This document shows positions 6,502 to 54,004 of a stretch of 64,000 bases of DNA, piece by piece. The notes beneath the pieces were generated by a model. That model saw only the letters and a list, made by a program, of their open reading frames with translations, made no database searches and had not been told where the DNA came from. A program made the translations under genes and the position numbers. The stretch comes from a virus: positions 144,882-208,881 of IMG/VR virus record IMGVR_UViG_3300005529_000001; one strand, given 5' to 3'. Each line of letters starts with the position of its first letter. The first letter of the stretch is position 1.

Positions 6502-7754
6502 GTCCTCGGTTTCAACAACATCTTAACCAACCAGGTGATGGCATCGATGAAGCTCTGGAAGCCCGACTTGGCTGGCCCATGGACGGGGACAGGAGTGACT
6601 GGCGCGGGCAGAGGGGTGGGCATTGGCCCGGGTTGCACGGGCGGTGGAGGGGGCGGCGTGGGGGCCGGCTGGTCCTGCACGAGGACGGGGATGCCGAGCT
6701 TGTCTGGGTCCCACCACTCTTGCATGGGCCTGCCAAGGGACGTCAGGACGTTCCCGGTACCCTCCGTGATCGCGTTGTTGGCGCGGCCACCTCCGCCATG
6801 GTCAGCGATGCCGTTTGCATCGACATCGCTGAGACACCACTCAACGTGGTCGTTATTGGTTCCCGGCGTGTTGTAACGCATCAGAGCGCCACGCTTTGGC
6901 ATTGTCTTTCCATCAAACTTGACAAGAGCGCCCGTGTTGATGCCGATCTGTCGGACCCATGACACCGCCATGCCCGACACGTACTTCTTGTTCAGGATCG
7001 GGTCACGGACACCCGCCTCAGCCATGATGCCCAAAGCGGACGTTGCACAGTTGGTGGAGACGGTGACGACCGCGTTTGGGTCATCGACGCCACGTGCCAC
7101 AAGCTTGCCCAGCTCATCACGCCGCGTGCTGAGGTTGCAACCGACGTGCGACTTCACCAGCCTGACGATCCGGTCAGCTGGGCTCTCGTTCGCGAGCAAC
7201 GGTTGCTGGTTGACGGGAACGTTGCTGCTCGAGGGATCAGGATGGGTTGGTGGCGCTGGTGGAGGGGGAGGATCGATGGGAGCTGGGTGAACCAACGGCT
7301 GGCCATCGGGGGTCAAGAACAGCTGACGTTCGCGGACTCGCCGGTTGTAGAGGCCCTTGTCTTGAGTCAGCTTGCCGTTGATGACAGCGTGGCACCAGAG
7401 GAGCATCGCGTCAGCTGCGCCCGCAACATCGCCAGCATTTAGCTTGGTTCGCATCGACGAACCGGCCAACGAACCTGTGCCGCAGTTGAAGGTGAACGAC
7501 ACCAGGGCATCAAACATGTTCTGGGTCAAGCCGGAGTACGTGATGTCCTTGTTGACAGCACCTTCCGCAGTGCTCACGTCACCGGCTAGGATCTGCAACG
7601 CTTGGTCATGGGTGATGCCGTTTGGGAACGACTCACCAGGCCGCACAACGTGCCCGATCCCGATCGTTGGGATCCCAGCAATGTCCTTGTAAACGTGATC
7701 GACTTCCCCTTCTTCGCGTGCGATGAAGTTAAGTCCATTCTGGGACGTTTTCAT
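6498..7754 (-). CDS. Multidomain endolysin: N-terminal GH24 (T4-lysozyme-like) muramidase, Pro-rich linkers, Cys/His-containing C-terminal domain
   Basis: GLNFIAREEGEVDHVYKDIAGIPTIGIGH resembles the T4 lysozyme [21 protein letters not shown] catalytic region. PPPPPAPP linkers. Middle domain has conserved Cys (TNCATSA) and His (DHVEWC). C-terminal amphipathic helix. Confidence 0.65.
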   Translation of the reverse strand: MKTSQNGLNFIAREEGEVDHVYKDIAGIPTIGIGHVVRPGESFPNGITHDQALQILAGDVSTAEGAVNKDITYSGLTQNMFDALVSFTFNCGTGSLAGSSMRTKLNAGDVAGAADAMLLWCHAVINGKLTQDKGLYNRRVRERQLFLTPDGQPLVHPAPIDPPPPPAPPTHPDPSSSNVPVNQQPLLANESPADRIVRLVKSHVGCNLSTRRDELGKLVARGVDDPNAVVTVSTNCATSALGIMAEAGVRDPILNKKYVSGMAVSWVRQIGINTGALVKFDGKTMPKRGALMRYNTPGTNNDHVEWCLSDVDANGIADHGGGGRANNAITEGTGNVLTSLGRPMQEWWDPDKLGIPVLVQDQPAPTPPPPPPVQPGPMPTPLPAPVTPVPVHGPAKSGFQSFIDAITWLVKMLLKPRT

Positions 7755-7769
7755 GTCCCTAAATAGGCG
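7755..7769 (-). promoter_or_regulatory. CCTATTTAGGGAC start-proximal motif upstream of the endolysin gene
   Basis: Minus-sense cgCCTATTTAGGGACATG. Confidence 0.3.
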
Positions 7770-7777
7770 TGGGACGG

Positions 7778-8080
7778 TCAGGCAGCTACGGGCTTTTTCT
7801 CGCCCTTCGGTGCTGCAGACTTGAGCTTCGCGACGCTTGCTCGGATGAGAGCGGTGACCTGGTTATGCAGGTCTGACATCTCCCTCTCGACGTCCTGGGG
7901 CGGGAACTGTGCTTTCAGCTTCTCGCCCACCGTGTTGACGAGCTGGGCGACCTGTTGCTTGACGCTGCCCTCAGCACCGCTGCCCGGTTCACCGCCTTTT
8001 GCAGCGGGATCCCTGGGGGCGTCCATGGCTTCTTTGACGAGCTTCTTGATGAGTGCGTTGGTAACAGGGGTGCGGGCCAT
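7778..8080 (-). CDS. Hypothetical protein
   Basis: 100 aa. N-terminus MARTPVTNALIKKLVKEAMD matches the LxxL[IV]xEA targeting-like motif. Confidence 0.4.
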   Translation of the reverse strand: MARTPVTNALIKKLVKEAMDAPRDPAAKGGEPGSGAEGSVKQQVAQLVNTVGEKLKAQFPPQDVEREMSDLHNQVTALIRASVAKLKSAAPKGEKKPVAA

Positions 8081-8088
8081 GCCAGTAA

Positions 8089-8604
8089 CTAGGCTTTCAC
8101 CCGTGCGACTGCTTCATCAAACCAACGGCTGACAGTCTTGGGAAAGGGCCACATGTAACCGTAAGCGCTCGAGACGAACTGCTTCAAGTACCAAGCTCGA
8201 CGCTTGTCATCATTGTAATCGATCCCGTAATCTGCAAAAGCTTGGAGAGACTCTGCATACGCTTGCTGTTCCAGCTTGGCTCGGCAATAGGACAGGCCCA
8301 CCGGGAAAAGGATGAGCAAGTAAAGAAGGGCATACACGGGGTACGTCAACGTGCGTGATTGCCGCATGTGAACGCGCTCGTGACGCAGGATCGAGCACCT
8401 ATCGTCATCGCCGAACGTCTCCCAGCCATCAGGCACGTACACCGTGTGATAGATCGTCGTCACGTAGCTAGTCATGAATTGCTGGCCCAGGACGAGTCCA
8501 ACCAGCTTCATGAACCAGCTATCGTTCTTTTTAGCGATGTTGAAAGAGGGGAACTCTGTTTTTATCTCGGCGCACAGACCTTGATAATCAGGTGTGATTG
8601 TCAT
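8089..8604 (-). CDS. Hypothetical protein
   Basis: 171-aa ORF on the prevailing strand with tight spacing to neighbours. Confidence 0.4.
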   Translation of the reverse strand: MTITPDYQGLCAEIKTEFPSFNIAKKNDSWFMKLVGLVLGQQFMTSYVTTIYHTVYVPDGWETFGDDDRCSILRHERVHMRQSRTLTYPVYALLYLLILFPVGLSYCRAKLEQQAYAESLQAFADYGIDYNDDKRRAWYLKQFVSSAYGYMWPFPKTVSRWFDEAVARVKA

Positions 8605-8608
8605 GCTG

Positions 8609-9103
8609 TTACGTATTCTTCTTGGACGGCAGCTTGAGCCGTCCTTCTGTTGCAGCCCTCTTCACCGCACCGATGACGTCCACCACTTGACCAGCTGCGC
8701 GTCGCGCGTCGATCTCAAATGGGTTGTCATAGTAGGGGTGAGCGTGCAAGCAGAACTTCAGTCCCACGTACGCTAGTCCGTAAAAGATGGGCAAGAAAAC
8801 GCCCAGCACCATGCCCTGACGTACGTGTTCCTGTTCGTGTCGCAGGGCCATGCGACCGTGGTGGGTGTCCAGGTTCCCGTTAAGAACGACGACGTTGCCG
8901 ATGGTGTGCCCCGCCCAGTGCCTCCACGAGTATCTCAACCAGCTGGGCATCAGGTCATTGTTGACAAACCAAACCAGCGCGTCATCTTTGCGACCCTCGT
9001 TGGTGTACCACCCAAGGACGGTGAATGCTGTGACGTAGATGAGGCCACACAACGTGAGCGGGAGGGCCCACAACCAGCCCAACGTCCGCCAAGGTTGCTT
9101 CAC
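8609..9103 (-). CDS. Hypothetical membrane protein
   Basis: Several hydrophobic helices (LGWLWALPLTLCGLIYVTAFTVLGW; VLGVFLPIFYGLAYVGL). Confidence 0.4.
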   Translation of the reverse strand: MKQPWRTLGWLWALPLTLCGLIYVTAFTVLGWYTNEGRKDDALVWFVNNDLMPSWLRYSWRHWAGHTIGNVVVLNGNLDTHHGRMALRHEQEHVRQGMVLGVFLPIFYGLAYVGLKFCLHAHPYYDNPFEIDARRAAGQVVDVIGAVKRAATEGRLKLPSKKNT

Positions 9104-9147
9104 ACCCCACCTCCCATACGGGTAGGTAGGCCAGTTCGTTCAATTGT

Positions 9148-9552
9148 TCACTTCGGAAGAATCACGTGTGGCACTCGTGACTTCCACTCAACGTACTCGC
9201 CAACAACCTTCTGGTGACGCTTGCGAAGCTGCTCAAACTTCTCAGTGAAGTCGACATTCAGGGCAACCCTCTCAACAAAGAGATCGTCCCAAGTAACCTT
9301 GGGCAACGCCACCTTCAGTTCCCAGAGGTTGGCACCTTCAATCGCACCAGGAGCGTCGTTGTAAAACGTGACAGTTGAGACCCCCTGGGGTGAATCGAAT
9401 TCAACGAGCGCCCCATCTATTGACAGCTTTTTGCCCTCTTGGCGAATGACGTCTTTCAAACCCTCGAGGTCGGCTGTCAGCGACCTGATGGTGCGATTGA
9501 GTTCCACTGCTTTGGCGATGGCCTGGCTCACGCGAGCGTTCTTGACCGGCAT
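9148..9552 (-). CDS. Hypothetical protein
   Basis: 134-aa ORF. GGAGG SD 5 nt upstream. Conserved 12-mer TTGTGGTAGACT upstream. Confidence 0.4.
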   Translation of the reverse strand: MPVKNARVSQAIAKAVELNRTIRSLTADLEGLKDVIRQEGKKLSIDGALVEFDSPQGVSTVTFYNDAPGAIEGANLWELKVALPKVTWDDLFVERVALNVDFTEKFEQLRKRHQKVVGEYVEWKSRVPHVILPK

Positions 9553-30286: not shown

Positions 30287-30964
30287 TCACGCCGGCGCGC
30301 CGCCGCCTCCTGGGCCCGCCTCAGCAGAGCCGCTTGCACGAGCAGCGGGCGGTGCTGGGAATTTGTCGTCATCGACTGACTGCCTATCCTGGCCGGGGAC
30401 CATGCCATGATCGTCACGCATGACGTTGTCAAACGCTTGCAGGACCTCGTCGTTGTAGTTCTTCTGCAAGAAACCACGCGCTCGGCGCATCAACGTAGCC
30501 TTGACTTCAAGCAAGCTGTCATAGTTCTCAATGAGCCTGACGACATCATCACAGAACTTGGCGACATCAACGTCTTCCATCGTCAGCTTCCCAGCGTCAT
30601 CGTCACCCATCATGTCGTCAGCACCGGGAGCAGCATCATCAGCGCCCTGGGCATCCTTGTCTCCCTGGCCCGCCTCGATCAGGACTCCCTTGACCAGGTC
30701 ACGCCAGTCCATCGCTTCCATCTGTGCGGCGCTGCCGGGACCCTGGAGCGAGTTGTCTGTCTTCTTGGAATCGGTCTCGTACTGCATCAGGTACTTGTCG
30801 ACCTGCTCATCCAGCGAGTCACCGCTAGCGCCCGTCACGTGTGCCTGGCTGTCATCGGGCGCTTCCTCAGGAGCCTCCTCGAGGACACGAAGGTAAGTGT
30901 CCATCCGACCGCGTTTTGCTTCGGACATGATCTGACGGAGATCACCCATCCTTAATCGCATCAT
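30287..30964 (-). CDS. Acidic protein with CTS-like N-terminus
   Basis: MMRLRMGDLRQIMSEAKRG. Asp-rich, 225 aa. Parallels MMRLTLGQLRNLLSEE (55226-55450). Confidence 0.45.
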   Translation of the reverse strand: MMRLRMGDLRQIMSEAKRGRMDTYLRVLEEAPEEAPDDSQAHVTGASGDSLDEQVDKYLMQYETDSKKTDNSLQGPGSAAQMEAMDWRDLVKGVLIEAGQGDKDAQGADDAAPGADDMMGDDDAGKLTMEDVDVAKFCDDVVRLIENYDSLLEVKATLMRRARGFLQKNYNDEVLQAFDNVMRDDHGMVPGQDRQSVDDDKFPAPPAARASGSAEAGPGGGGAPA

Positions 30965-31719
30965 GAGCCCCTCTTCTGTCCCTGGCCCATCACCTGTGCC
31001 AGCTCCTCAGCCTTCTTGAAACGTTCTTCGATGACATCGAAGTTAAGCTCTTTCATCATCGCAACCAGGTATGACTCCTTGTCGGTCTGGTAATCTTTGA
31101 AGTACGAGTGCTCGTGCATGTCAATGACGACCAACGGGTAGAACCCGAGCATCACGTCTTGTGAGTTGTTGCTGACCATCGTGTTGATGTAGCGTTGGAG
31201 GTACATGTGATAGCCGCAGACAGCCCATCCCTGCCCGCTGCCCATCGCGCAAGCCATGAAGTCTTTCTGCCAGTCGTTGAATGTTCCAAAGTCACGTTCT
31301 AACCTCAGGTACGTCATCGAGTCCATGTAGACTTCGCTGTGAGGATCGAAGCAGTTGGCAAAGTACAGCTCGTGAAGCCACACTGCATTGAGGTTGTATG
31401 TCTCATCCAGCTTCAGGCTACGGTAATCGCTGTGCTTGCTGTCGGCTTGCGCTCGTTCTGCGGTGTCGAGCTCGCTGCTGACGCGGTTCAGCGTCTCGAT
31501 GTGGCCCTTGTAAAGAGCCTCGTGAGCGTCCTTCGTCTTCTGTGACGCAAACTCGGTCACCTGACTGTACTGCTTGGGTTGCGCGACGTACGCCTCGTCA
31601 AGCGGTTCGGGTCCCGGGATCTGCTTCTTCAGCGACTCTTTGATGATGCCAGCGAGGTCAACACCCTCTGCAAGACCCAGCAAGCCGTCACCTGTCTTTC
31701 CGTTCGAGCTCATGGCCAT
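30961..31719 (-). CDS. Fe/Mn superoxide dismutase-like protein with ~45-aa N-terminal extension
   Basis: ERDFGTFNDWQKDF (cf. ERDFGSVDNFKAEF), VIDMHEHSYFKDYQTDKESYL (cf. [20 protein letters not shown]) and AHEALYKGHIETLN (cf. HHTKHHQTYVNN). The four metal-ligand positions are occupied: His, His, Asp, His. Confidence 0.5.
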   Translation of the reverse strand: MAMSSNGKTGDGLLGLAEGVDLAGIIKESLKKQIPGPEPLDEAYVAQPKQYSQVTEFASQKTKDAHEALYKGHIETLNRVSSELDTAERAQADSKHSDYRSLKLDETYNLNAVWLHELYFANCFDPHSEVYMDSMTYLRLERDFGTFNDWQKDFMACAMGSGQGWAVCGYHMYLQRYINTMVSNNSQDVMLGFYPLVVIDMHEHSYFKDYQTDKESYLVAMMKELNFDVIEERFKKAEELAQVMGQGQKRGS

Positions 31720-33244: not shown

Positions 33245-33805
33245 CTATCGCCGGGCCAGAGCTTGGTAGATGGCTTCCTGCAGGGTCAACACCTCGACCC
33301 CAGCGCTTTTCAGGAGATCGATCCCATCAGTGATCCGATACGGGATCTCATAGACGACTCTGGCAATCTCCGCGTTGACGATCAGCTTCGCACACTCCTT
33401 GCACGGGCTGTTCGTCACGTACATGTGCTTCGGTCTGGCAAAGTTGTAGTCGCACTTGACGAGAGCGTTGACCTCAGCGTGGACAGTGCCGCTCTTCCCG
33501 CGTTCGAGCGATTCAACGTGATTGGGACCGCCCTTCCACATCCCGTTGTACCCTACGCTGAGCATCTGCGTGTTGTTCGACGAAACGACGATCGCTCCCA
33601 CTTTCAATGCCGGGTCGATCGAGCGCAAAGCGATTGTCTTTGCGACCTGCATCCAGACTGACGGCCAGGTCGGACGTTCGGGTTCCTTGTCCTCAACGAG
33701 AACAGTCAAGCAGAACTTGCACGTCTGCCCACCGGCATCATTCTCCACCCAATGATGGAAGATGTCTTTGGTGTTTGCTAGACACGCTTCGTTTAGGTTT
33801 CCCAT
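33245..33805 (-). CDS. dCMP deaminase (zinc-dependent cytidine/deoxycytidylate deaminase family) with N-terminal extension
   Basis: HAEVNAL (Zn His/Glu) and SPCKECAKLI (PCxxC). Resembles T4 Cd. Confidence 0.75.
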   Translation of the reverse strand: MGNLNEACLANTKDIFHHWVENDAGGQTCKFCLTVLVEDKEPERPTWPSVWMQVAKTIALRSIDPALKVGAIVVSSNNTQMLSVGYNGMWKGGPNHVESLERGKSGTVHAEVNALVKCDYNFARPKHMYVTNSPCKECAKLIVNAEIARVVYEIPYRITDGIDLLKSAGVEVLTLQEAIYQALARR

Positions 33806-34980
33806 CAAGCCCCCACCATGGATTGGAACAACTCGCTCTCAAGGCGATGGATTTCCTGGCCTAGCGCTTTGCCCGAAAACCCCTGTGCCATCAGGGGCTC
33901 ACCCCTGAAAGGCTCAGAGCCCAGGTACCGCAAGAAAGCATCGAACTCTGCGTTCGAGGGCATCCCGCGAGCACGAACGTACTCAACGTACATCGTGAAG
34001 GCGTCATCTTCTGACATGCCCAGGGCTTTCTCGGCCTTGCGGAGCTTCAGAGCGGTGTCCTTCGTGATGTTACGGAGCCGGAGCAAGAACGTGACTTGCG
34101 CGACCTCGTCAACCGAGTACTTCAGGTGAAGCAGCTTTTTCCCCAACGTCTCAAGGTTCTCATCATCCAAGATGAGAGCTAGCACGACCGGGACGGTGTT
34201 GGAATCGACCCCACGCGTAGACACGAGGTTGTCCAGGTACGTTGACACTTTGAGCCCGGGCAGCACCCGATCCCACAACCCCAACGACGTCATGAGGTTC
34301 ATCAACCGTTGTGGTTTCTCAGCTGCTACGATCGACTTGACAAGCTCGTCCCGGACCCGTTCAAACGAGACGCCATCAAGGTTGTTGTCACGCTGAATGG
34401 CTGCGAACGTTTCTTTGGAGATCTCAAAGCCGAGCTTGACTGCGAACCTGATGGCTCGCAACACCCTGAGCCTGTCTTCGGCAAACCTGTCCTCGGGACG
34501 TCCAACCGTCCTGATGACCTTGTGACGAATGTCATCGAGCCCGCCGACTAGGTCAACGACCTCTTGCGCGGTGATGTCATAGAACAGAGCGTTGATCGTC
34601 AGGTCCCGACGTTGCACGTCTTCCTTGATCGTCGCGAAGCGTACCTGTGGGTGGCGACCCGCGCTCAGGTCCTCACGGAACGTTGCGATCTCGTACTCCT
34701 CGGAAGGAGACCCATCGTGGGTGTACGTCCTCGTTCGGATGACGCCGAAAGCCTTGCCGACTGCATCCGTTAGCCATCGTCCCGTGGTGTGGAGCAAGCG
34801 CTCCACTTGGTCAGGAGTGGCATCAGTTGCGAGGTCGAAATCCTTGGGCTTCTTGCCCATCACCGCGTCACGCACTGCACCACCGACCAGGTGCAGTGCG
34901 TAGCCATTCGTATGAAAGAGCATCGCCAGCGATTTGACATCGCTGTGCAAGTCAATCTTGAGAGGCTGACGGACTACCAT
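33805..34980 (-). CDS. cca: CCA-adding enzyme / poly(A) polymerase-family tRNA nucleotidyltransferase
   Basis: Class II head domain LVGGAVRDAVMGKKPKDFDLATDATP. 391 aa. Confidence 0.7.
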   Translation of the reverse strand: MVVRQPLKIDLHSDVKSLAMLFHTNGYALHLVGGAVRDAVMGKKPKDFDLATDATPDQVERLLHTTGRWLTDAVGKAFGVIRTRTYTHDGSPSEEYEIATFREDLSAGRHPQVRFATIKEDVQRRDLTINALFYDITAQEVVDLVGGLDDIRHKVIRTVGRPEDRFAEDRLRVLRAIRFAVKLGFEISKETFAAIQRDNNLDGVSFERVRDELVKSIVAAEKPQRLMNLMTSLGLWDRVLPGLKVSTYLDNLVSTRGVDSNTVPVVLALILDDENLETLGKKLLHLKYSVDEVAQVTFLLRLRNITKDTALKLRKAEKALGMSEDDAFTMYVEYVRARGMPSNAEFDAFLRYLGSEPFRGEPLMAQGFSGKALGQEIHRLESELFQSMVGA

Positions 34981-35012
34981 GCGGTCATCCTACCATCGTT
35001 GGTGGTTGGTTT

Positions 35013-35594
35013 TCACTCTTTCGCGATGTTCGCTCGTTTGTCAACGGCAAGATGGTGGCGAAAGCAACGCGGCTCATAGAGCTCCGCGCCACCGACCTGG
35101 ATCTCCTCGCCGTCTGTCTGTTTCTTGTGAGTGTAGAAAGCGTCACGCCCACATTCAGTGCAGACCGCTGCACATTTTTCGACATGCGTTGCCCAAGCCA
35201 TCAGCTTCTCGACCTCGTGGAATGGCTTGCCCAGGTATGACAGGTCCAACGTTGAGACCACGACATCGATGCCGAGCTGGTAAAGGTAGATCAGGACGTC
35301 GGCGACGCCCGGGATCATGAACGCTTCGTCAACGGCAACCACCTCGGGCATCTGTTCCGCTTCCGCAAGCGCGCCCAAGATGTCTGACCCCTCCTTGACA
35401 AGGGTAGCATCGTGTTTCCAGCCCGAGTGACTGACAACCTCAGTGTTGCTGTACCTGGCATCGATCGCGGGCTTGAAGACCTGGATTCGCTTGTGTTGGT
35501 ACTTGGCACGCTCAAGAGCGAGCAACAGTTTCGTCGTTTTTGACGAGAACATTGCGCCCGCGAAGACCGTCAGCGTTGGGTTCTGCCCGCTCAT
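35013..35594 (-). CDS. tdk: Thymidine kinase
   Basis: P-loop FAGAMFSSKTTKLL, VDEAFMIPG, C-terminal Zn ribbon CxxC...C. Confidence 0.75.
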   Translation of the reverse strand: MSGQNPTLTVFAGAMFSSKTTKLLLALERAKYQHKRIQVFKPAIDARYSNTEVVSHSGWKHDATLVKEGSDILGALAEAEQMPEVVAVDEAFMIPGVADVLIYLYQLGIDVVVSTLDLSYLGKPFHEVEKLMAWATHVEKCAAVCTECGRDAFYTHKKQTDGEEIQVGGAELYEPRCFRHHLAVDKRANIAKE

Positions 35595-36148
35595 GCGAAC
35601 CTATGTTCCAGGATGACGAAGGGAGCGCGGCACACCGAGTCATACCTTGCTGCAGCCTCAAGGGCTAACGTGATTCGTTTCTTTGGGTCCATTTGCATGT
35701 CTCTTGTCGCGTACATTGCCCCGTTGGCAACTTGCGCGCCCACACCGATGCAACAGTAATCATCCTGAGGACAACCAACATCAAAATCTTCTTCGATGGA
35801 ATAGAGCTTGCCGTTGTATCCCACCAGCAACCCAACCGAGTGAAACTCTTCTTCGTCTTCCCTCTTCAGAGATCCTTTTTCCTTGTGCAACTCTCTGACA
35901 GCATCGATGAAGTTGATGACCATGTAAGCCATGTCATCGTGCTTCTTGGGCTTGTCAGGTGCTTCGAAAGCGTACCGCAACAGCTGTCCCACACGGAAGC
36001 TTCCCGCAAAACCTATGATGAAGTCACCGTTGATGAAGACTTTTTCGTCAGCCCGGCCGAGAACAGAGGTGCCTTTCGTATCGGATGCCAACGAATCAGC
36101 ACCCATATAGATCACGCCGTTCTCGACCAAGCCAACGATACAGGTCAT
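35591..36148 (-). CDS. HslV-like N-terminal-Thr peptidase (proteasome beta-type Ntn hydrolase), copy 1
   Basis: MTCIVGLVENGVIYMGAD, ADEKVFINGDFIIGFAGS and CIGVGAQVANGAMYA align with HslV TTIVSVRRNGHVVIAGD / [20 protein letters not shown] / IAIGSGGPYAQAAARA. Thr follows the initiator Met. Confidence 0.6.
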   Translation of the reverse strand: MTCIVGLVENGVIYMGADSLASDTKGTSVLGRADEKVFINGDFIIGFAGSFRVGQLLRYAFEAPDKPKKHDDMAYMVINFIDAVRELHKEKGSLKREDEEEFHSVGLLVGYNGKLYSIEEDFDVGCPQDDYCCIGVGAQVANGAMYATRDMQMDPKKRITLALEAAARYDSVCRAPFVILEHRFA

Positions 36149-36152
36149 GGAC

Positions 36153-36722
36153 TCAGTTCCGGTTCTTCACCACCAGCGTATCGAACGGTGGAGCACAGCC
36201 TGCGTTCTTGGTAGAAGCTTCGAGTGCCATGAGAACACGCTTCTTGGCGCCGCCCCACATTTTCTTGGTCGCTTCGAACGAACCGAGCGCCAGCTTGCTG
36301 CCGCTGCCGACAGAAGCAAACTTCTCATCGCCTTCGACCAGCTGAAAGTTACCCTCGAGCGTGTAGAGATGGCCACGATAAGCGACCAACATCGCGCCTT
36401 CAAAGCAGATCTCACCGTTACCGCCGAATGGGCTGTTGTCAGGACCCGCTGCGTCGAGCTTCTTGAGGCCCTCGCGGATCGCTGGAACTAGCTCGGTCAC
36501 TAGGAACTGCCTATCATCGCCGCCTGCCTGGATGGGCAGCTCGATGCCATGTTTTAGCGCGTCCATGACCTTGGGCAGGCCGCAGACACCAAAGCCCACA
36601 TCGCCCTTTGCAAAGATCTTGGGCTCCTTGAGCAAGGTCCTATTGAGACCGCCATCCGTGGCCGCCCGATCTCCGCCGAGCCACACCTTGTTCCCATCAA
36701 CCAAACCGACTATGCAGGTCAT
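36153..36722 (-). CDS. HslV-like N-terminal-Thr peptidase, copy 2
   Basis: MTCIVGLVDGNKVWLGGD, KIFAKGDVGFGVCG, GSGSKLALGS. Paralog of 35591-36148, 4 nt upstream. Confidence 0.6.
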   Translation of the reverse strand: MTCIVGLVDGNKVWLGGDRAATDGGLNRTLLKEPKIFAKGDVGFGVCGLPKVMDALKHGIELPIQAGGDDRQFLVTELVPAIREGLKKLDAAGPDNSPFGGNGEICFEGAMLVAYRGHLYTLEGNFQLVEGDEKFASVGSGSKLALGSFEATKKMWGGAKKRVLMALEASTKNAGCAPPFDTLVVKNRN

Positions 36723-36901
36723 GACTTGTTCTCCGAGCTTGACTTCTTGGTGTCCTGTTCACCGGCAACGTACGACGACCAAGCGATCAACGTCATCGCG
36801 TTGAATGCTTCGCCAGTGTAGCCGAGTTTCTTTGCTGCCTTGATCGCTTTCGTGATCGACGAAGCGAGTGTATCACGCCAAACAGTGTTGTCTTCGCTCA
36901 T
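36719..36901 (-). CDS. Hypothetical small protein
   Basis: 60 aa. GGAAGG SD. Overlaps the stop of the upstream gene. Confidence 0.3.
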   Translation of the reverse strand: MSEDNTVWRDTLASSITKAIKAAKKLGYTGEAFNAMTLIAWSSYVAGEQDTKKSSSENKS

Positions 36902-36904
36902 TAG

Positions 36905-37672
36905 TCATCCTTCCTTTGTGTTGTACGGCGAGTCTGGGTAGAGTTCACGGTATTGTGACTTGGATACGGCGATCTCTCCCGTCTTGGTAAAATGGTCTAC
37001 CAAGTAGAAGTGTCGCTCGTAGACGTGGAGACTGCCTGCGCTCCAGTGAATGTCACCCTCAGGCAACTGGAGATCCTTGGCAAGGTTGGCAAGGACGGTA
37101 TACTGCCAGGCTCGATCGTTCTTGTAACCCAGAACCGCGTCATTGGATCGCATCTGGACCACGGCATGAAGAGCACCATCACGGACTAGGTACTGTACCG
37201 CGTTGGTGCACATGAAGTCGCTCCGGCCATCGATGTTGTACTCCTCCCACATCGAGGGACGGGTGTAGATGACAACAGCCCTCCGGCTCTCCGGGTTTTT
37301 CTTGAGCTCGGCCAGCACTTTTGTGTACTGGCCACCGTTCTCTGGGCTGTAGGTCGTCCACCCGTAGTTGCTGTTGATGGTACCGTCCTTAGAAGCGACA
37401 GCTTTCCACACCGTGGGTGCCCCGCCCGGGATGTCATTGACGTTCCGGCTCTGGCTCATGTACCACATCTCCTCGCGGTGGATGTAGTCCCAGTCAACCT
37501 TGCCGAACAGGGCGTCGTCCGAAGCGATGAAGTTAGCCCCAACGATCTCAATCGTCCTCTTGCCAACCAGAGAGGTCATCGACGCTTCCCGGTTGACGCT
37601 AGTGAATTTCTCCTCGGCAAGAAGAGAAGCGAATTGGTCCCTGATCGACTGCGTTGAATTGTAGAGCGTCAT
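36905..37672 (-). CDS. Thymidylate-synthase-family pyrimidine C5-modifying enzyme (divergent; ThyA or dNMP hydroxymethylase-like)
   Basis: FMCTNAVQYLVRDGALHAVVQMRSNDAVLGYKND aligns with ThyA [33 protein letters not shown]: catalytic Cys, RSxD and Asn retained. IHREEMWYM matches IHELLWFL. The folate/N-terminal regions diverge far more than between true ThyAs. Confidence 0.6.
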   Translation of the reverse strand: MTLYNSTQSIRDQFASLLAEEKFTSVNREASMTSLVGKRTIEIVGANFIASDDALFGKVDWDYIHREEMWYMSQSRNVNDIPGGAPTVWKAVASKDGTINSNYGWTTYSPENGGQYTKVLAELKKNPESRRAVVIYTRPSMWEEYNIDGRSDFMCTNAVQYLVRDGALHAVVQMRSNDAVLGYKNDRAWQYTVLANLAKDLQLPEGDIHWSAGSLHVYERHFYLVDHFTKTGEIAVSKSQYRELYPDSPYNTKEG

Positions 37673-38622
37673 TTGTTAAGCTTCATCTTTCCGACCCAAT
37701 CCCAGTTGTCTTCGTACCATTTGACGGTCCGATCCAGACCCTCCCAGAACCTGACCAGTGGGACATATCCTAACAACTGTTGTGCTTTTGTCACGTCGGC
37801 TTGGGTGTGCATGACATCGCCGGCGCGCCAGGGCGCGTTGCAGACCTGAGCACCTGGATAACGCTTGCCCAGCTCGATGATGATGTCACGGTTAGTCGTT
37901 CGGTCTCCACATGCTACGTTGATGCACTCAGCATTGAGCAAACCTGATACGTTTCCAGCCTTGACACACGCATCGACAACGTTGTCAACGTAACACATGT
38001 CGCGGCTCTGGCTGCCGTCGCCGTCGCTACGAAGAGGGATGCCCTTCTTGATCGCTGTCAACCAGGCTGACACCGCGGTTGAATACGGGCTGTCACCCAG
38101 CTGGTTGGGTCCAAAGACATTGAAGAAACGCAAACAAACGCTGTCAAGCTTGTAAAGATCGCGGTACAAGACCAGGTAATCTTCAATGATCGACTTCTGA
38201 AGAGCATATGGTGACTTGGGGTTCTTACGCTCGTTCTCGCTGGTGGGTAGTATGTCAGCCCCACCGTATACCGACGAGCTAGACGCGAAAACGAACCGCT
38301 TGACGTTGTCCCGACAGGCATCCATCAACGCCAACGTCCGGGACACGTTGACGTGGTTGGTTTCTAGCGGGTGCTCGACTGAGTACGACACCCTGGGAAC
38401 AGCCGCCAAGTGAAAGATGACATCGTACCTGCCCTGCTTTATCTCGTGCAATACATCAGCATGAGCAAAATCTTTCGTGATTACCGCCTGGCCATGAGGT
38501 ACAAACTCCAGGTGACCGTTGGACAGATCGTCAACAGTGTCAACATCCCACCCTTCGTCCAAGCAACGCTTGACAAGGTTCGATCCGATGAAGCCCGCGC
38601 CGCCAGTGACAAGGACGTGCAT
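37669..38622 (-). CDS. NAD-dependent nucleotide-sugar 4-epimerase (GalE/WbpP-like extended SDR)
   Basis: VLVTGGAGFIGSNLV Rossmann motif, SSSSVYG, catalytic YALQK. 4-nt overlap (translational coupling) with the TS-family gene. Confidence 0.75.
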   Translation of the reverse strand: MHVLVTGGAGFIGSNLVKRCLDEGWDVDTVDDLSNGHLEFVPHGQAVITKDFAHADVLHEIKQGRYDVIFHLAAVPRVSYSVEHPLETNHVNVSRTLALMDACRDNVKRFVFASSSSVYGGADILPTSENERKNPKSPYALQKSIIEDYLVLYRDLYKLDSVCLRFFNVFGPNQLGDSPYSTAVSAWLTAIKKGIPLRSDGDGSQSRDMCYVDNVVDACVKAGNVSGLLNAECINVACGDRTTNRDIIIELGKRYPGAQVCNAPWRAGDVMHTQADVTKAQQLLGYVPLVRFWEGLDRTVKWYEDNWDWVGKMKLNK

Positions 38623-42318: not shown

Positions 42319-45300
42319 ATGAGGGTCAGTCTGGGCGTCCTGAGGGACTACGTCTCCAACCTGTTGGTTGAGAATCGCATCGATGATGCACGTGAAAAAT
42401 ACCCCGACATCGAAGAGGATGTCTTCCAAAACCTCGTCGCGAACCAACCCGGCGGGTCGAACAACAAGTACCTGATGTGGTCAGCCAAGCAGGTTGACGA
42501 CGAGGTAATGCCTGAAGAGGTCATCATGGCCATCAGGTTGTTTCACGACAACGTTCACCGTCTCAAGCAAAAGGACATCAACCAGTACGAGAGCGTCGAA
42601 GCCCTCGACACCGCCATTGACGAGCTCCAGAAGAACAAGAGCAAGAGCCAAGAAGCCAAGCAAGCGAAGGCTGACACCCAGGTCATCTACAACGACGACA
42701 ACTGGCTCGTTGTCCGCCCGTACACTGCTGACGCATCATGCAAGTACGGCGCAGGTTCAAAGTGGTGCATCTCGGCCACTGCATCTCGCAACTACTTCAA
42801 CTCGTACTCAGAGACCAACAACAAGTTCTACTTTGTCATCGACAAGAAATCAACTAGCAACACGCCCAACTCAAAGTTCGCTATCGCTATCGTTGCAGCG
42901 GGCTTGGCTGCCGCCGGTCGCGAGATCCAGGTCTACAACGCCTCCGATAGCTTGGTGTCTCTGAACACCGTAGCTAGCGCCGTCGGTAGCAAGTGGCCTG
43001 AAATCTGGGAAAAGATCCAAGCTCACGTCGCAGCAAACCCGAAGACCCGTGAGGTCGAAGACGCTGAGAGAGCGACTGAAGAGCATGTTGCTGCGTTGTT
43101 GAAAGGCGAGAAGCTTAGCGACCAAGCGATGAAGAAGGTCGCCAAGAGCGGCAAGCTATCAAACCAAGTCATCAAGAAGATCCTCGGACGTTACGAGAAC
43201 TACACGGGACCCACCGATTACCGTGATGAACGACAGGACATCATGAACTCGTTGTCCAGCCGCGCCAGTGAGATGGAATCTGAAGGGGCGATGGCTGTAT
43301 TGAAGTGGATCTCAGAGAACAGCGCCAACAGCTATTGGCGTACTTCCTACCTCGAACGCATGTTGGCAGCCGCTCCCTTCAAACCAGAAGACTTCCGTGA
43401 GATCGCTAAGACTAACGATGAAGAGATCCTCGCTAACATCTTTAGTAACCCAGCAACTCCTGATGACGTAAAGCGAGTGATCTCTGATGCTGCAATGCGT
43501 TTCGTGTCGGAGTCAGCTACCCGAAAAGTTTACTGGGAGCTCATCAAGTCGGGTGCCATCACCAAAGAGCAGATGGCACACGCGATGGAGATGGATAACA
43601 AGAGGGGCTCATACAGGTACCTGACAAGCCAGATCCTCAACCATCCTGAAGACGTTCGCATGGAACCCGAGTTGGTCAAGATGTTAACCATCAACAACGC
43701 AGGAGAGTTCAAAAACCTGTTGCGGATCCCGAACGTCCCACACGATTTTGCTGTCAAGATCCTCAGCAAGCTGATGAGCAGCGAGAGCCTGAAGAAATAC
43801 GACATGCTCGAGTTGCTCCGGACAACACCGTTGGGTCCGAAGCAGATCGAGAAGCTGTGGGCTGACTGGCCCCAAGCAACCGTCAGGACAGCGTTGCTAC
43901 AAAACCCTGGGATCGGTGAGGGGAACGCTAACAAGTTCGCCAAAAGCAAGAACAGCGCGTACCGTTTTTCGGTTGCACACAACACCATCACTCCAGTTGA
44001 TGCGCTCAACACACTCTCCAAAGACGAGTCAGTCTCAACCAGGTCAGCTGTCGCTGCTAACCCCAAGACATCACCCGAGACGCTGTACACGCTAGCAAAG
44101 GACCAAGCTGTTGCGGTCAGAGCGAGCGTCGCTAGCAACGCATCGTCACCGACCAACCTTGTACGTGCTCTGAAACGAGACTCAGACGACTTTGTCAGGA
44201 AAGCTGCTCGGAAGACGCTCAAAGCTTTGGACGTGACAGAAGCTTACATCGGGATGGCGATGGGCATGCGTGGTTTGCTCGTTGAAGAGCTGACCGATGA
44301 TGATGTCACGCCTGACATCATGAACCCAAGCTGGCGTGACATCATTCCTAGCACCATTGACAAGGAAGAGTTTGTCGCGGTCTTTCTGTTGCAGAACAAT
44401 GGTAGCGCAACGCGAGAAGAGATCACCAAAGCGTACAAGGATTGGATGGGCAGCGCTGGTGGAGCGGGCGAGCTCTGGAAGACAAACAAGTGGAGTGACC
44501 AGATCATCCGCGGCATCATGTCTCAGGGTAAGGGCTGGTTCTGGTCGCCTCCAGGCATCAACAAAGGTGCTCTGTTTCGTCTGACGCCAGCAGGTGCGAG
44601 CGCAGCTTTGGACATTATCAGGAAACTCGCTCACCTCACGAACCTATCTTCTCCCGTACAGATCACGTCTGCCAAGGCTCGACCAGGAAAGACGTACTTT
44701 GTCAAGGGCGCTGAAGAAGCCCTTGACGTCACGGGCATGGAGAAGGGTGACCTTGAGGTCGAAGAAGTTGCAGCAAACTACAACAACGAGCCCATCAAGA
44801 CTGATGGGAAATACACGAAGCTGTCACCAAACCGCAGCTGGCGACAGAAGCGCCGCCAACGCAGCGTGAAGATGTTCAAGTACACCTCCCCAACAGGGGA
44901 AGTGAAGTACACTCGAGAGCTTCCCAAGGTCTCCGTCCCCAACAATGCCAAGGTACAGTTCATCAAGACATTCCACGGCCAGGCGACGAATGACAGGTAT
45001 TCCACCAGCGAACCCAACCGAGCGATCGTCAAGTACAACGACAAGTACCTGCTTGTCAAGTTCCCGATGTGGGCAAAAGAGGGTGGTGCTGTTCCAGACA
45101 ACTCCGAAAAGGAGACAAACGTACCGCCGCCCGTCAGGAAGTCTCCTCCACCACGTGAGCTGACGGGCGAACCCGCCGCTGCACCAGCACGAACTGGTGG
45201 GGGTGAAGCTCCCGCAGCTCCCCGTGGACCCAAAGTCGGTTACAAGATCTACGGCCGCCACCGTGGGGCTCCCGCTCACACGCGTCTGAAGGGCCAAGCT

Positions 45301-45432
45301 TACGCTGCACCTACAGACACCCAGTTCTCACCCGGAGAGCAAGCGACCATCCAGGTCGGTGCTGATGGCAAGCTGAAGGTCAAGAAAGTGGCTGGCGATC
45401 ACGAACAGACGTGGGACCCCGTCGAGGGTTGA
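42319..45432 (+). CDS. Large (1037 aa) protein with HEAT/LRV-type repeats; possible virion/ejected protein
   Basis: Clean 3.1-kb plus-strand ORF. Repeats of type VSTRSAVAANPKTSPETLYTLAKDQAVAVRASVASNAS (leucine-rich-repeat-variant-like). N-terminus MRVSLGVLRDYVSNLLVEN is CTS-like. ATACTTAG promoter-like motif upstream. Confidence 0.55.
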   Translation: MRVSLGVLRDYVSNLLVENRIDDAREKYPDIEEDVFQNLVANQPGGSNNKYLMWSAKQVDDEVMPEEVIMAIRLFHDNVHRLKQKDINQYESVEALDTAIDELQKNKSKSQEAKQAKADTQVIYNDDNWLVVRPYTADASCKYGAGSKWCISATASRNYFNSYSETNNKFYFVIDKKSTSNTPNSKFAIAIVAAGLAAAGREIQVYNASDSLVSLNTVASAVGSKWPEIWEKIQAHVAANPKTREVEDAERATEEHVAALLKGEKLSDQAMKKVAKSGKLSNQVIKKILGRYENYTGPTDYRDERQDIMNSLSSRASEMESEGAMAVLKWISENSANSYWRTSYLERMLAAAPFKPEDFREIAKTNDEEILANIFSNPATPDDVKRVISDAAMRFVSESATRKVYWELIKSGAITKEQMAHAMEMDNKRGSYRYLTSQILNHPEDVRMEPELVKMLTINNAGEFKNLLRIPNVPHDFAVKILSKLMSSESLKKYDMLELLRTTPLGPKQIEKLWADWPQATVRTALLQNPGIGEGNANKFAKSKNSAYRFSVAHNTITPVDALNTLSKDESVSTRSAVAANPKTSPETLYTLAKDQAVAVRASVASNASSPTNLVRALKRDSDDFVRKAARKTLKALDVTEAYIGMAMGMRGLLVEELTDDDVTPDIMNPSWRDIIPSTIDKEEFVAVFLLQNNGSATREEITKAYKDWMGSAGGAGELWKTNKWSDQIIRGIMSQGKGWFWSPPGINKGALFRLTPAGASAALDIIRKLAHLTNLSSPVQITSAKARPGKTYFVKGAEEALDVTGMEKGDLEVEEVAANYNNEPIKTDGKYTKLSPNRSWRQKRRQRSVKMFKYTSPTGEVKYTRELPKVSVPNNAKVQFIKTFHGQATNDRYSTSEPNRAIVKYNDKYLLVKFPMWAKEGGAVPDNSEKETNVPPPVRKSPPPRELTGEPAAAPARTGGGEAPAAPRGPKVGYKIYGRHRGAPAHTRLKGQAYAAPTDTQFSPGEQATIQVGADGKLKVKKVAGDHEQTWDPVEG

Positions 45433-50554: not shown

Positions 50555-50812
50555 TCAACGCCTGTTTCGCCAAGCTGCCCGTTTCGCAACTTCTTCGTGC
50601 GTGGTGCCCTCTTCCTTACAGCGGGTGTCGTAGAGCACATCCAAGATCCCGATCACAAATCCGCTTGCGAGTGCACCGTGCGTGCAGCTATCCAGCACCT
50701 CAAGCACCTGGAGCGTTGATGGCGGGCAATCCCACTTTTCGATCATCAGCTTCGCCGTGTCATCCAGCTGTGAATTTGGCGCTCGCAGCAGAACCTCTAT
50801 TGCTTCTTTCAC
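50555..50812 (-). CDS. Hypothetical protein
   Basis: 85-aa ORF. 4-nt overlap with the UXS-like gene. Confidence 0.3.
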   Translation of the reverse strand: MKEAIEVLLRAPNSQLDDTAKLMIEKWDCPPSTLQVLEVLDSCTHGALASGFVIGILDVLYDTRCKEEGTTHEEVAKRAAWRNRR

Positions 50813-51807
50813 TTCGTCACTTTTTGGATGTACGCGATCGTCTTATCAAGGCCCTGATCCAATGTCACGACTGGGTTCCATCCCAACAATGTTTTTGCTC
50901 TGCTGATGTCCGGGCATCGGCGTCTCGGATCATCGATGGGCAGGTCGCGCATCTGAATGTTGTTGTTGATACCGTTTGAGTCTAGAGGAATGTTGTGTAC
51001 CTTGTTGATCACCTTGCACGCCAGATGCCAGACAGTAAACTCATCTGGGTTACCCAAGTTGACAGGACAGCGTGGGTTCTCTTTGAGAGCTCCCATTGCA
51101 ACGATGCCCCGGATCAGGTCATCAACATAACAAAACGACCGCGTCTGCCTACCCTCGCCATAGACCGTCAGCTGTTCGTTCTTGAGAGCTTGGCGGATGA
51201 AATTGCTGACGACACGCCCATCAAACGGGTCCATGTTAGGACCGTAAGTGTTGAAGATCCTGACAAGACGAGCGTCAACTCCCTCCTGATTGAGGTAATC
51301 AAAACATAGAGCTTCCGCAGCGCGCTTTCCCTCGTCATAGCACGAGCGTGGACCGTATGAGTTGACACAACCCTTGTAATCTTCCCGCTGCGGTGACACA
51401 TCTGGGTCGCCATACACCTCGCTGGTTGACGCATGAACTAGCACTGCGTCATAGTGATCAGCGAGTCGCAGCATCCGTTCAGTGCCCACAACGCAGGTCA
51501 ACATCGTGTGGATGGGCTGTTCCTGATAGCGTGGTGGCGAAGCAGGACACGCAAAGTTATAGATGAGATTGAGCCCACGGTGGTGGTACTGCCATCCGTT
51601 GACATGGCTAGCGATCGCCGGGTCGGTGATGTTGCTCTGGGCGAAGCTGAAGTTCTCGTAAGAACACAGGTCTTTCAGGTGAAGAGAGCCCTTGTCAGAC
51701 GAGCTGAAATCATCAACGCCGAGGACCCTGTCGCCCTTCTCAAGGTGGTGTTTCGCCAGGTGCGATCCCAAGAACCCCGCTGCGCCCGTCACCAGAACGT
51801 TCTTCAT
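50809..51807 (-). CDS. UDP-glucuronate decarboxylase (UDP-xylose synthase, UXS)-like SDR
   Basis: MKNVLVTGAAGFLGSHL and YGDPDVSPQREDYKGCVNSYGPRSCYDEGKRAAEALCFDY closely parallel UXS ([40 protein letters not shown]). Confidence 0.75.
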   Translation of the reverse strand: MKNVLVTGAAGFLGSHLAKHHLEKGDRVLGVDDFSSSDKGSLHLKDLCSYENFSFAQSNITDPAIASHVNGWQYHHRGLNLIYNFACPASPPRYQEQPIHTMLTCVVGTERMLRLADHYDAVLVHASTSEVYGDPDVSPQREDYKGCVNSYGPRSCYDEGKRAAEALCFDYLNQEGVDARLVRIFNTYGPNMDPFDGRVVSNFIRQALKNEQLTVYGEGRQTRSFCYVDDLIRGIVAMGALKENPRCPVNLGNPDEFTVWHLACKVINKVHNIPLDSNGINNNIQMRDLPIDDPRRRCPDISRAKTLLGWNPVVTLDQGLDKTIAYIQKVTK

Positions 51808-52727: not shown

Positions 52728-53687
52728 ATGAAACCACAGCTGACAGAAGCTCACGTTGCCGAGATCATGGAACACTTGCTGGAGCGTTTCGGCGAGCCCA
52801 TCGGCGATGCACAGGGTGATCGCCAAGGGATCCCATCCAAGGGCGGTCGCAAGGAAAAGATGGGCAACCGGGGCTTCGGTGCGAAGCTTGAACACGTCGG
52901 GCTGCCCGGAGCGTGTGGGGGTTGTGGCGGCATGATGGGAATCGAGGGCGACACTTGCACTAACTGCGGCGAGATGCCCAACGCCCTGGAGCCCTCTCCC
53001 AGCCCGCCCAAGACTGCAGGCAACAGCGTCGCCATCGTTGTCAAGGGATCAACACCCGAGGGTGGCAGCCGCGGGGGCAAGTTCGCCCAGGGCCTGAAGG
53101 TCAAGGACATGGACGGCATCCCATCAACGGGATCAGGCCGGGGCACGCAAGCTCCGGCATCCCCTCCGAAACCGATGCCCAAGGCTCCGGCTCCCGGTCC
53201 AGCTGAGCCCACCCCCATGCCAGCAACGCTCGATCAGGCTGACCTTGCGGGTGCTGATGAGCTCGACGAAGAGTCGACAGAAGACAAGCAAGAGCGTCTG
53301 CACTATGATATCGACCGTGATGGCGAGGTTGGTGAGAGCCCGGAACACCGTGAGAAGGTTCTTGGTCACGAAGACGATGAGCTCGACGAAGATGCGATGC
53401 CAAGCGGCAGCTCTTCGCCCCCTCCTCCCCCGTCTAGCAGCTCTCCCGCTCCAGCACCAAAGCCACCGTCGCCCCCGCCATCATCAGGTGGATCATCACC
53501 CCCTCCCCCAAGCGGCGGGTCGTCATCGTCTCCGCCGCCCGCTGAGGAGATGCAGGAAGACATGGACCTCGATGAGGTCACGCCTCCCGGACGTGAGAAG
53601 CAAGTCAAAGCCCTGAAAAAGAAGGGCGACGTCAAGAACCCATGGGCAGTCGCTTGGTCTTCCTACAACAAGAGTCACAAGAAGTGA
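52728..53687 (+). CDS. Intrinsically disordered Pro/Ser/acidic-rich protein with CTS-like N-terminus
   Basis: Start set at the ATG (MKPQLTEAHVAEIMEHLLE), 5 nt downstream of CATACTTAC. The GTG extension would overlap the divergent azurin start. SSSPPPPPSSSSPAPAPKPPSPPP repeats. Confidence 0.45.
   Translation: MKPQLTEAHVAEIMEHLLERFGEPIGDAQGDRQGIPSKGGRKEKMGNRGFGAKLEHVGLPGACGGCGGMMGIEGDTCTNCGEMPNALEPSPSPPKTAGNSVAIVVKGSTPEGGSRGGKFAQGLKVKDMDGIPSTGSGRGTQAPASPPKPMPKAPAPGPAEPTPMPATLDQADLAGADELDEESTEDKQERLHYDIDRDGEVGESPEHREKVLGHEDDELDEDAMPSGSSSPPPPPSSSSPAPAPKPPSPPPSSGGSSPPPPSGGSSSSPPPAEEMQEDMDLDEVTPPGREKQVKALKKKGDVKNPWAVAWSSYNKSHKK
53395..53545 (+). repeat. Coding low-complexity repeat encoding SSSPPPPP/SGGSSPPPP units
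   Basis: Direct reading within 52728-53687. Confidence 0.35.
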
Positions 53688-53689
53688 CC

Positions 53690-54004
53690 ATGAAAACAAC
53701 AGTTGGTAATTTGAAGGCGATGGTTGCTCAAGTCATCGCTGAAACCCGTGGTCACCTCAACCCACAGGAAGTGCTGACCACATACGAAGACCTGTACATC
53801 AACTCGGTCAGGAACAACCGCGCTGGTGACCACGCTATGGGCCCGGCGGGAGTTGTCCCGCTGGAGACGCTAGCCAGCATGCTCGGTGCATCGCCCGAAC
53901 AGCTCGCTGCTGTGATGCACAAAGCGGGTCTGATTGTTGATCGTGACGGCAACGTGGTCGAGCGCGGCAACACGCCGCCCCCGATGAAAGCCGTCAAGGG
54001 CTAA
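53690..54004 (+). CDS. MKTT-family small protein
   Basis: Start set at the ATG 2 nt after the upstream TGA. N-terminus MKTTVGNLKAMVAQVIAETRG. Confidence 0.5.
   Translation: MKTTVGNLKAMVAQVIAETRGHLNPQEVLTTYEDLYINSVRNNRAGDHAMGPAGVVPLETLASMLGASPEQLAAVMHKAGLIVDRDGNVVERGNTPPPMKAVKG

Follow-up and report, generated by a model that had tools for sequence, protein, structure and literature searches.

Two adjacent genes of an uncultured jumbo phage, here designated A and B and encoding proteins of 185 and 189 residues, respectively, are likely to specify two paralogous subunits of an N-terminal-threonine, proteasome-type enzyme from group I, the kind that includes BPH (Betaproteobacteria proteasome homologue) and AAH. 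They lie in a 64,000-nucleotide stretch of DNA (positions 144,882 to 208,881 of IMG/VR virus record IMGVR_UViG_3300005529_000001), hereafter the window. Protein A is also found on a metagenomic contig of 369,506 bp (ENA ERZ27279688 k141_1055159), and the window represents 64 kb out of this 369.5-kb contig. The only new element is the conserved duplicated pair; the family itself is already known in phages and bacteria.

Catalytic residues

A first-pass annotation of the window, made from the sequence alone, had pointed to two adjacent paralogs of 185 and 189 residues, about 30% identical to each other and both starting with MTCIVGLV. The two open reading frames (ORFs) were recovered exactly where it had placed them on the minus strand, with MTCIVGLV at the first start codon of each. 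BLASTP aligned A with B at 31% identity over 192 columns (E = 6e-27), and a profile-profile comparison of the two families gave a probability of 100% (E = 1.8e-47). Judged by these sequence comparisons, A and B are true paralogues.

Alignments were built from about 120 orthologues of each paralogue, together with a joint alignment that included single-copy phage and cellular relatives. The threonine at position 2, equivalent to Thr1, is present in 117 of 120 A-type and in all 121 B-type orthologues; Asp18, equivalent to Asp17, in 119/120 and 121/121; and the Lys33 equivalent, which is Lys36 within ADEKVF in A and Lys35 within PKIF in B, in every sequence (120/120 and 121/121). The motif GxGxxxA is found at G135-x-G137-x-x-x-A141 in A (G-V-G-A-Q-V-A) and at G139-S-G141-x-x-x-A145 in B (G-S-G-S-K-L-A), while the glycine of the oxyanion region, Gly46 in A (invariant) and Gly45 in B (G-V-C-G region), is invariant or at least 97% conserved. 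The catalytic triad and the glycine motifs, as well as a downstream arginine, are invariant or nearly so in the A-type, B-type, single-copy phage and cellular groups, and 25 columns are invariant over 112 B-type sequences. The retention of the Lys33 equivalent and of GxGxxxA, which had been proposed for the two window proteins, extends in near-invariant form to some 120 orthologues of each. The concern raised alongside it, that Thr and Lys might prove unconserved in a proper alignment, did not materialize, as both are conserved.

In nearly all relatives, the homologous region begins with the first residue, which indicates that no propeptide is present. In BPH, removal of the methionine exposes Thr1, which is labelled by epoxomicin (PMC5777263). 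The position of proteasome Ser129 (BPH Ser139) is occupied by Ser in B and by Val in A of the window; most A-type and cellular relatives have Cys or Val there, so that Cys/Val is taken as the ancestral state of the family. The loss of Ser129 was considered as a mark of an inactive A and was rejected, given that Cys/Val is the ancestral AAH state.

Family assignment and predicted fold

Both proteins matched phrog_1040, annotated as 'peptidase HslV family' (E = 1.7e-23 for A and 1.9e-15 for B), and both missed the Pfam PF00227 gathering threshold of 22.4 bits, with 20.7 bits for A and 12.5 bits for B. Some close homologues have a precomputed PF00227 match, and the misses reflect the divergence of the family, which exceeds what this model can capture. 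In searches of PDB sequences, A matched BPH best (5ovu, E = 1e-4, improving to E = 2.6e-8 with the family profile), and the B family profile retrieved BPH only (E = 2.2e-4). HslV and 20S β-subunit matches appeared in family-profile searches at about 1e-3, and the single B sequence gave an additional weak HslV match restricted to its C-terminal third.

AlphaFold2 models were computed as monomers on the family alignments, with a mean predicted local distance difference test (pLDDT) of 93.5 and a predicted template modelling score (pTM) of 0.89 for A, and 94.5 and 0.90, respectively, for B. On the strength of these models, both proteins are predicted with high confidence to adopt the proteasome β-type α-β-β-α sandwich fold. 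Foldseek searches against the PDB ranked BPH first for both models (template modelling (TM) score 0.72–0.79), followed by HslV and then by 20S β subunits; the best match was BPH 5ovs for A (TM 0.79) and BPH 5ovu/5ovs/5ovt for B (TM 0.72–0.76). More than 1,000 PDB matches were obtained at E ≤ 0.001, and the 50 listed per model were all BPH, HslV/ClpQ or 20S. Both models show a compact group I architecture with helices H1–H4, no insertions and no S12/H5, and helix H2 spans residues 72–91 in A and 70–88 in B. In A, this helix is followed by an acidic loop, KREDEEEF, with a family mean net charge of -2.6; that of B is longer and carries less negative charge (-1.7).

A class II glutamine amidotransferase, which is an N-terminal nucleophile (Ntn) enzyme employing Cys1, was considered and discarded: the N-terminus reads Met-Thr-Cys with an invariant Thr, and no match to this class was found in Pfam, NCBIfam, the PDB sequences or the 50 listed fold matches per model. 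The first-pass annotation had named such a non-peptidase Ntn family as what would speak against its proposal, and the matches were to BPH, HslV and 20S β subunits instead. PADLOC anti-phage defence models gave no match at E ≤ 0.1.

Comparison with known proteasome homologues

The pair had originally been described as HslV-like. Membership of the proteasome superfamily as N-terminal-threonine enzymes holds, but the term HslV-like is imprecise: against the HslV equivalog models NF003964 and TIGR03692, with cut-offs of 137 and 157.75 bits, A reached 19.0 and 17.9 bits and B 18.1 and 17.4 bits, and the nearest structures are those of BPH. By these scores and structures, A and B are not HslV; with the distribution of their cellular relatives, they are taken to be AAH/BPH-like. 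They share with HslV (ClpQ) the fold and the catalytic triad (Foldseek TM 0.63–0.77), and database annotations of their homologues read 'HslVU peptidase subunit'. HslV requires HslU for activity, whereas no HslU is encoded in the window.

BPH (5OVS, 5OVT and 5OVU) is the best profile and structural match of both proteins. Common features are the Met-Thr start in the absence of a propeptide, the lack of an unfoldase partner and, in A, an acidic loop after helix 2 that resembles the acidic pore loop of BPH. Identity is only 17–24%, however, and A lacks the equivalent of Ser139. Moreover, BPH is a cellular homo-tetradecamer, which forms a double ring and whose acidic pore loop is elongated, whereas two paralogues, modelled as monomers only, are found here.

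AAH was described by Fuchs et al. (2021, PMC8665760) from Actinobacteria, α-proteobacteria and phages, and in Firmicutes through phages. A and B conform to it in their compact size of about 180–190 residues, with neither propeptide, insertions nor C-terminal S12/H5, in the Thr1/Asp17/Lys33 triad, in having BPH as the closest characterised neighbour and in lacking an AAA+ partner. They also conform in distribution, being frequent in phages and having cellular relatives that are concentrated in Actinomycetota and Rhizobiales, with some Firmicutes. Across GTDB, the A profile retrieved 338 cellular loci, and the best 80 of these, at 40–48% identity, were mostly from Actinomycetota (Dactylosporangium, Streptomyces and Micromonosporaceae) and Rhizobiales (Ensifer, Rhizobium and Mesorhizobium), with some Bacillales and Dehalococcoidia. 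A is classed here as AAH-like by distribution and sequence similarity. The differences concern B: AAH was described as a single gene, whereas here a second, monophyletic paralogue of 31% identity adjoins it, and B has regained a Ser at the position equivalent to Ser129, which is Cys or Val in AAH proteins.

Like PPH, A and B would be phage-borne group I proteasome homologues without a partner ATPase. PPH nevertheless has about 140 residues and no helix H2, and an assignment of A or B to it was ruled out by their size (185/189 residues, with H1 and H2) and by the presence of that helix. The 20S β paralogues (Sulfolobus acidocaldarius 6Z46, chains of which were among the Foldseek matches of A and B, and eukaryotic β1/β2/β5) offer a precedent for duplication leading to distinct subunits of one fold, an analogy that is possible only if A and B co-assemble. 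In contrast to the 20S proteasome, the A/B system has neither α subunits nor propeptides, and its PF00227 scores are below the gathering threshold.

Phage-encoded proteasome-type peptidases had been called uncommon at the outset, which is accurate in that the family occurs in 76 of 50,697 GenBank phage records, as well as in 34 viral structures of BFVD. They are not new, however: phage proteasome homologues without an unfoldase are already catalogued, both as phrog_1040 and as PPH/AAH/CPH (PMC8665760). Two jumbo-phage reviews, PMC7824862 among them, make no mention of this proteasome-like family.

Organization, distribution and origin of the pair

The stop codon of B and the start codon of A are four nucleotides apart, a spacing that is compatible with translational coupling, which is probable from the sequence. 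The A stop codon overlaps the start codon of the thymidine kinase (TK) gene, which places the genes in one operon; the B start is itself overlapped by the stop codon of a short upstream ORF and preceded, at a distance of 8 nucleotides, by a Shine-Dalgarno-like GGAG motif. These overlapping or tight junctions make the pair part of a tightly packed co-directional operon. As previously annotated, the pair stands between the thymidine kinase gene and a gene of the thymidylate-synthase family, both of which were identified by Pfam (see Table 1). The block reads NAD-epimerase, ThyA-like, orf60, B, A, TK, PolyA-pol/CCA-type nucleotidyltransferase and dCMP deaminase.

This order recurs in contigs of about 340–360 kb and in 19 of 21 IMG/VR B-type loci (numbered L010–L030). 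The conserved surroundings read orf477, NAD-epimerase, ThyA-like, B, A, TK, PolyA-pol/CCA-type nucleotidyltransferase, dCMP deaminase, orf93 and SOD-like, and they persist in loci whose B shares no more than 43% identity with that of the window. An A-type gene directly follows on the same strand, with the close spacing kept, in 18 of 24 B-containing loci (17 IMG/VR loci plus L016), and 27 contig sizes are common to the top-120 homologue lists of A and B. There are departures from this arrangement. In L013, L017 and L018 (IMG/VR contigs of 46–140 kb), B is directly followed by TK and the A slot is empty, A having been lost from an otherwise conserved block. In L023 and L025, B stands by itself and in other surroundings, and L022 (IMGVR_UViG_3300044712_001255, 324 kb) has three copies at 5415–9188, reading A, B, a stretch of about 1 kb, ThyA-like and A'.

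Outside these loci the gene is single. A and B match the same single gene in every GenBank phage record, cultured relatives with one copy being Geobacillus virus E3, Moorella phage MTATph1 and Ochrobactrum phage vB_OspM_OC, about 45 IMG/VR loci have a single A-like gene, and the cellular loci examined are single-copy and A-like. Apparent double or triple cellular matches were traced to a single gene broken up by frameshifts, and three consecutive genes of about 190 residues in Tunturiibacter phage Tunturi_5 were dismissed as a source of hidden paralogues, since those flanking the single copy are unrelated to it. B-type proteins are rare: a search of 1.84 billion representatives with the B profile returned 7,276 proteins at E ≤ 1e-3, comprising one 50%-identity cluster at 324 bits, about a dozen at 160–220 bits, and then the A/AAH continuum.

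The A and B orthologue sets separate cleanly, and the B-type sequences are monophyletic in a neighbour-joining tree (22/22 tips), which points to one duplication. Only this monophyly was used, since long branches make the position of B inside the A/AAH radiation unreliable. Slower evolution of B than of A holds only for the closest relatives. The simplest history compatible with the sequences is that A represents the ancestral AAH-type gene and that B arose from it by a single duplication, which would fall at the root of an uncultured jumbo-phage clade (about 310–370 kb); B would since have diverged to about 31% identity with its catalytic residues kept.

Proposed mechanism and alternative explanations

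As paralogous subunits of a proteasome-type enzyme, A and B would have Met1 removed by methionine aminopeptidase, which would expose Thr1 as the nucleophile, with the Asp17 and Lys33 equivalents completing the triad. By analogy with BPH and HslV, the most probable assembly would be a stack of rings, its active sites turned towards an inner chamber. In the absence of a dedicated phage AAA+ unfoldase, substrates would be peptides and unfolded or specially delivered proteins, and an ATP-independent, self-compartmentalised Thr1 peptidase is the most likely mechanism. The two genes are probably co-transcribed with the nucleotide-metabolism genes and their translation coupled, which suggests a role in the infected cell during replication rather than in virion maturation.

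No AAA+ unfoldase was found by a six-frame Walker-A scan of the 64-kb window, in agreement with the first-pass annotation. The scan returned three long ORFs, namely the 183-residue thymidylate-kinase-like protein, the SOD-like protein and a 1037-residue LRV (leucine-rich-repeat-variant) protein, plus a fourth match containing a stop codon. The missing HslU partner, to which the first-pass annotation had pointed, is indeed absent from the window but is no anomaly, as an AAA+ partner does not co-occur with this family in general (PMC8665760). Of note, a gene for a protein with DnaJ and WGR domains lies about 5 kb from the pair in two related loci (L002, 1393–2481, minus strand; L004, 1262–2845, minus strand), with the corresponding place in the window lacking one. 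A protein with a J domain could enlist host Hsp70, and this may have a bearing on how substrates are delivered.

Several points weigh against this proposal. BPH, the closest relative of solved structure, was inert on standard peptides and casein (PMC5777263), and Connectase is a proteasome homologue that acts as a ligase and not as a peptidase, so that A and B are referred to as putative peptidases only. AAH members and phage homologues likewise have no demonstrated activity or substrate. As judged from the alignments, the active-site hydrogen-bond network of A would also differ from the canonical one, the Ser129 equivalent being Val/Cys, and the AAA+ scan covered 64 kb out of the 369.5-kb contig.

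The arrangement of the pair raises the possibility that A and B form an obligate hetero-oligomer, either with subunits alternating within rings or with an A ring stacked on a B ring. Such a mixed particle would carry two kinds of active site, reminiscent of 20S β-subunit diversification. The adjacency of the genes in a fixed B-then-A order, only four nucleotides apart and with probable translational coupling, is in line with it, as are the maintenance of this order in 18 of 24 B-containing loci down to 43% B identity, the complete set of catalytic residues in both paralogues and the 27 shared contig sizes. Against it stand the loci in which TK follows B with no A in the slot (L013 and L017/L018), those with B alone in another context (L023 and L025) and the three-copy locus with another arrangement (L022), together with the single-copy state of A-like genes in all GenBank phages and cellular genomes examined. 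Pairwise identities over 14 genomes, with means of 0.53 and 0.54, revealed no correlated divergence of A and B (r = 0.13), a weak test in that the distances are probably saturated. Co-assembly is therefore entertained here tentatively, with the balance tilted against it. The more elaborate proposal that the duplication of an AAH gene within this lineage gave rise to a two-subunit, unfoldase-free viral proteasome-like particle with two specificities, acting in the replication phase, is speculative and on the doubtful side. If true, it would constitute an independent and recent replay of the subunit diversification behind heteromeric proteasomes.

A non-proteolytic Ntn enzyme, such as an amidohydrolase or ligase acting on a metabolite or a specific protein of nucleotide or DNA-modification metabolism, is unlikely. 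Its appeal lies in the position of the pair, which is fixed between the ThyA-family gene and TK across the clade, and in relatives that adjoin dCMP deaminase (Xoo-sp13), MazG/NMN genes (Ochrobactrum phage), thymidylate kinase and ligase (Tunturi_5), ThyX (L068) or dNTP diphosphohydrolase (L072). In addition, Connectase provides a non-protease precedent in the superfamily, and BPH does not act on protein substrates (PMC5777263). Most genes that flank single-copy homologues are nevertheless unrelated to nucleotides (subtilase, resolvase, transposase and lysis enzymes), and 20 flanking genes in unrelated single-copy loci were heterogeneous, with no consistent partner, in agreement with the uninformative gene context reported for the family by Fuchs et al. 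(PMC8665760). The triad, furthermore, is the classical proteasomal one, and BPH binds peptide-like inhibitors productively (PMC5777263). We read the proximity to nucleotide genes as co-expression with early or middle 'auxiliary' genes and not as a pathway link.

Docking of A and/or B on host HslU or another AAA+ ring, by which ATP-dependent degradation would be redirected, would have a parallel in the ClpP or ClpS encoded by jumbo phages, which use host Clp ATPases (PMC7824862). The fold family shared with HslV and the lack of a phage AAA+ gene nearby would fit such a hijack, but the HslV equivalog cut-offs are missed by more than 100 bits and neither of the nearest relatives, BPH and AAH, has an unfoldase partner, which renders it quite improbable.

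Least of all do we expect a morphogenetic protease that would cleave N-terminal tags similar to the T4 capsid-targeting sequence (…L/I-x-E) during head maturation, even though at least ten window ORFs start with tags such as MKTTIGKLKKLIQEA and proteasome β1 sites can cleave after acidic residues. The pair is located inside a nucleotide-metabolism and replication operon, there is no portal, scaffold, capsid or other structural gene in the 64-kb window, homologues occur in cellular genomes without capsid context and in phages beside unrelated genes, the T4 and phiKZ prohead proteases for x-x-E motifs are serine proteases, and the S1 pocket of BPH is hydrophobic (PMC5777263). The processing of L/I/M-x-E peptides suggested in the first-pass annotation accordingly found no support.

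The tags as such are a separate feature of the window. They form the N-termini of ORFs that start at 25564, 25961, 30964, 55824, 55450, 55193, 15510, 18323 and 5975 on the minus strand, and at 42319 and 54004 (ORF 53642–54004) on the plus strand, all of them genes of the replication region and not of a structural module. The peptides are amphipathic and end in L/I-x-E (MKTTIGKLKKLIQEA, MKTTLRQLRALIAEA, MKTTWGKVRQLLAEA and MMRLRMGDLRQIMSEA), a further example being MKTTIGKLKKLIQEALK, with the motif LIQE. We take them to resemble the T4 capsid-targeting sequence MKTYQEFIAE.

Implications

The BPH/AAH/PPH group is widespread and has no known substrate or function. The proposal of paralogous subunits of a proteasome-type enzyme is of interest in this respect because the retention of two diverged and catalytically intact copies in one phage clade amounts to a natural experiment, which would indicate strong selection on the fold in viruses and in which the sequence differences between A and B may map specificity or assembly interfaces. 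Should the two co-assemble, they would provide a young and tractable model of the transition from homo-oligomeric to heteromeric proteasomes. For jumbo phages, the pair also extends the replication-phase toolkit by a candidate proteolytic activity that would be independent of ATP. As long as no activity is demonstrated, its practical significance is modest.

Gene neighbourhood and further features of the window

A near-identity DNA search of GenBank phages with the pair locus gave no match, and the phage has no annotated close relative on this basis. Functions typical of large phages are encoded in the window, including a DnaE-type polymerase, an endolysin, DNA methyltransferases, an RNA ligase and exonucleases, besides the dCMP deaminase, TK and thymidylate-kinase-like protein. 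The features are collected in Table 1.

Table 1. Coordinates of the gene pair, its junctions and other features of the window.
Feature	Position	Strand	Basis or remark
Paralog B, 189 residues, predicted derived proteasome-like Ntn-Thr subunit	36153-36722	-	ORF
Paralog A, 185 residues, AAH-like proteasome homologue	35591-36148	-	ORF
B-to-A junction	36146..36155	-	B stop TGA, 4 nucleotides GTCC, A start ATG
A stop/TK start overlap, ATGA	35591..35594	-	Sequence
B start region	36719..36735	-	Stop of upstream 60-residue ORF overlaps B start (ATGA)
Co-directional block around the pair	33245..38622	-	Pfam families on source contig and conserved order in relatives
Thymidine kinase	35013-35594	-	PF00265 on identical gene of source contig
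Thymidylate-synthase-family (ThyA-like) gene, 255 residues	36905-37672	-	Pfam, E = 6.3e-21
NAD-dependent sugar epimerase	37669-38622	-	
Second NAD-dependent sugar epimerase	50809-51807	-	
dCMP deaminase	33245-33808	-	
Thymidylate-kinase-like protein, 183 residues	41721-42272	-	
CCA-adding/poly(A) polymerase family nucleotidyltransferase	33805-34980	-	PF01743, PF12627
SOD-like protein, Fe/Mn superoxide dismutase C-terminal domain	30961-31719	-	E = 7.5e-19
Putative protease unrelated to the pair	52-945	+	phrog_9683, E = 4.5e-20
LRV-repeat protein, 1037 residues, with Walker-A-like motif	42319-45432	+	Opposite strand to neighbours

The ThyA-like protein, in the vicinity of two epimerases, the dCMP deaminase, TK and the thymidylate-kinase-like protein, might belong to a modified-base (hydroxymethyl or glycosyl) pathway. 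The CCA-adding/poly(A) polymerase gene directly after TK is kept across the conserved block, and the SOD-like gene is part of the synteny block in nearly all related contigs. The LRV protein also begins with an N-terminal tag, MRVSLGVLRDYV.

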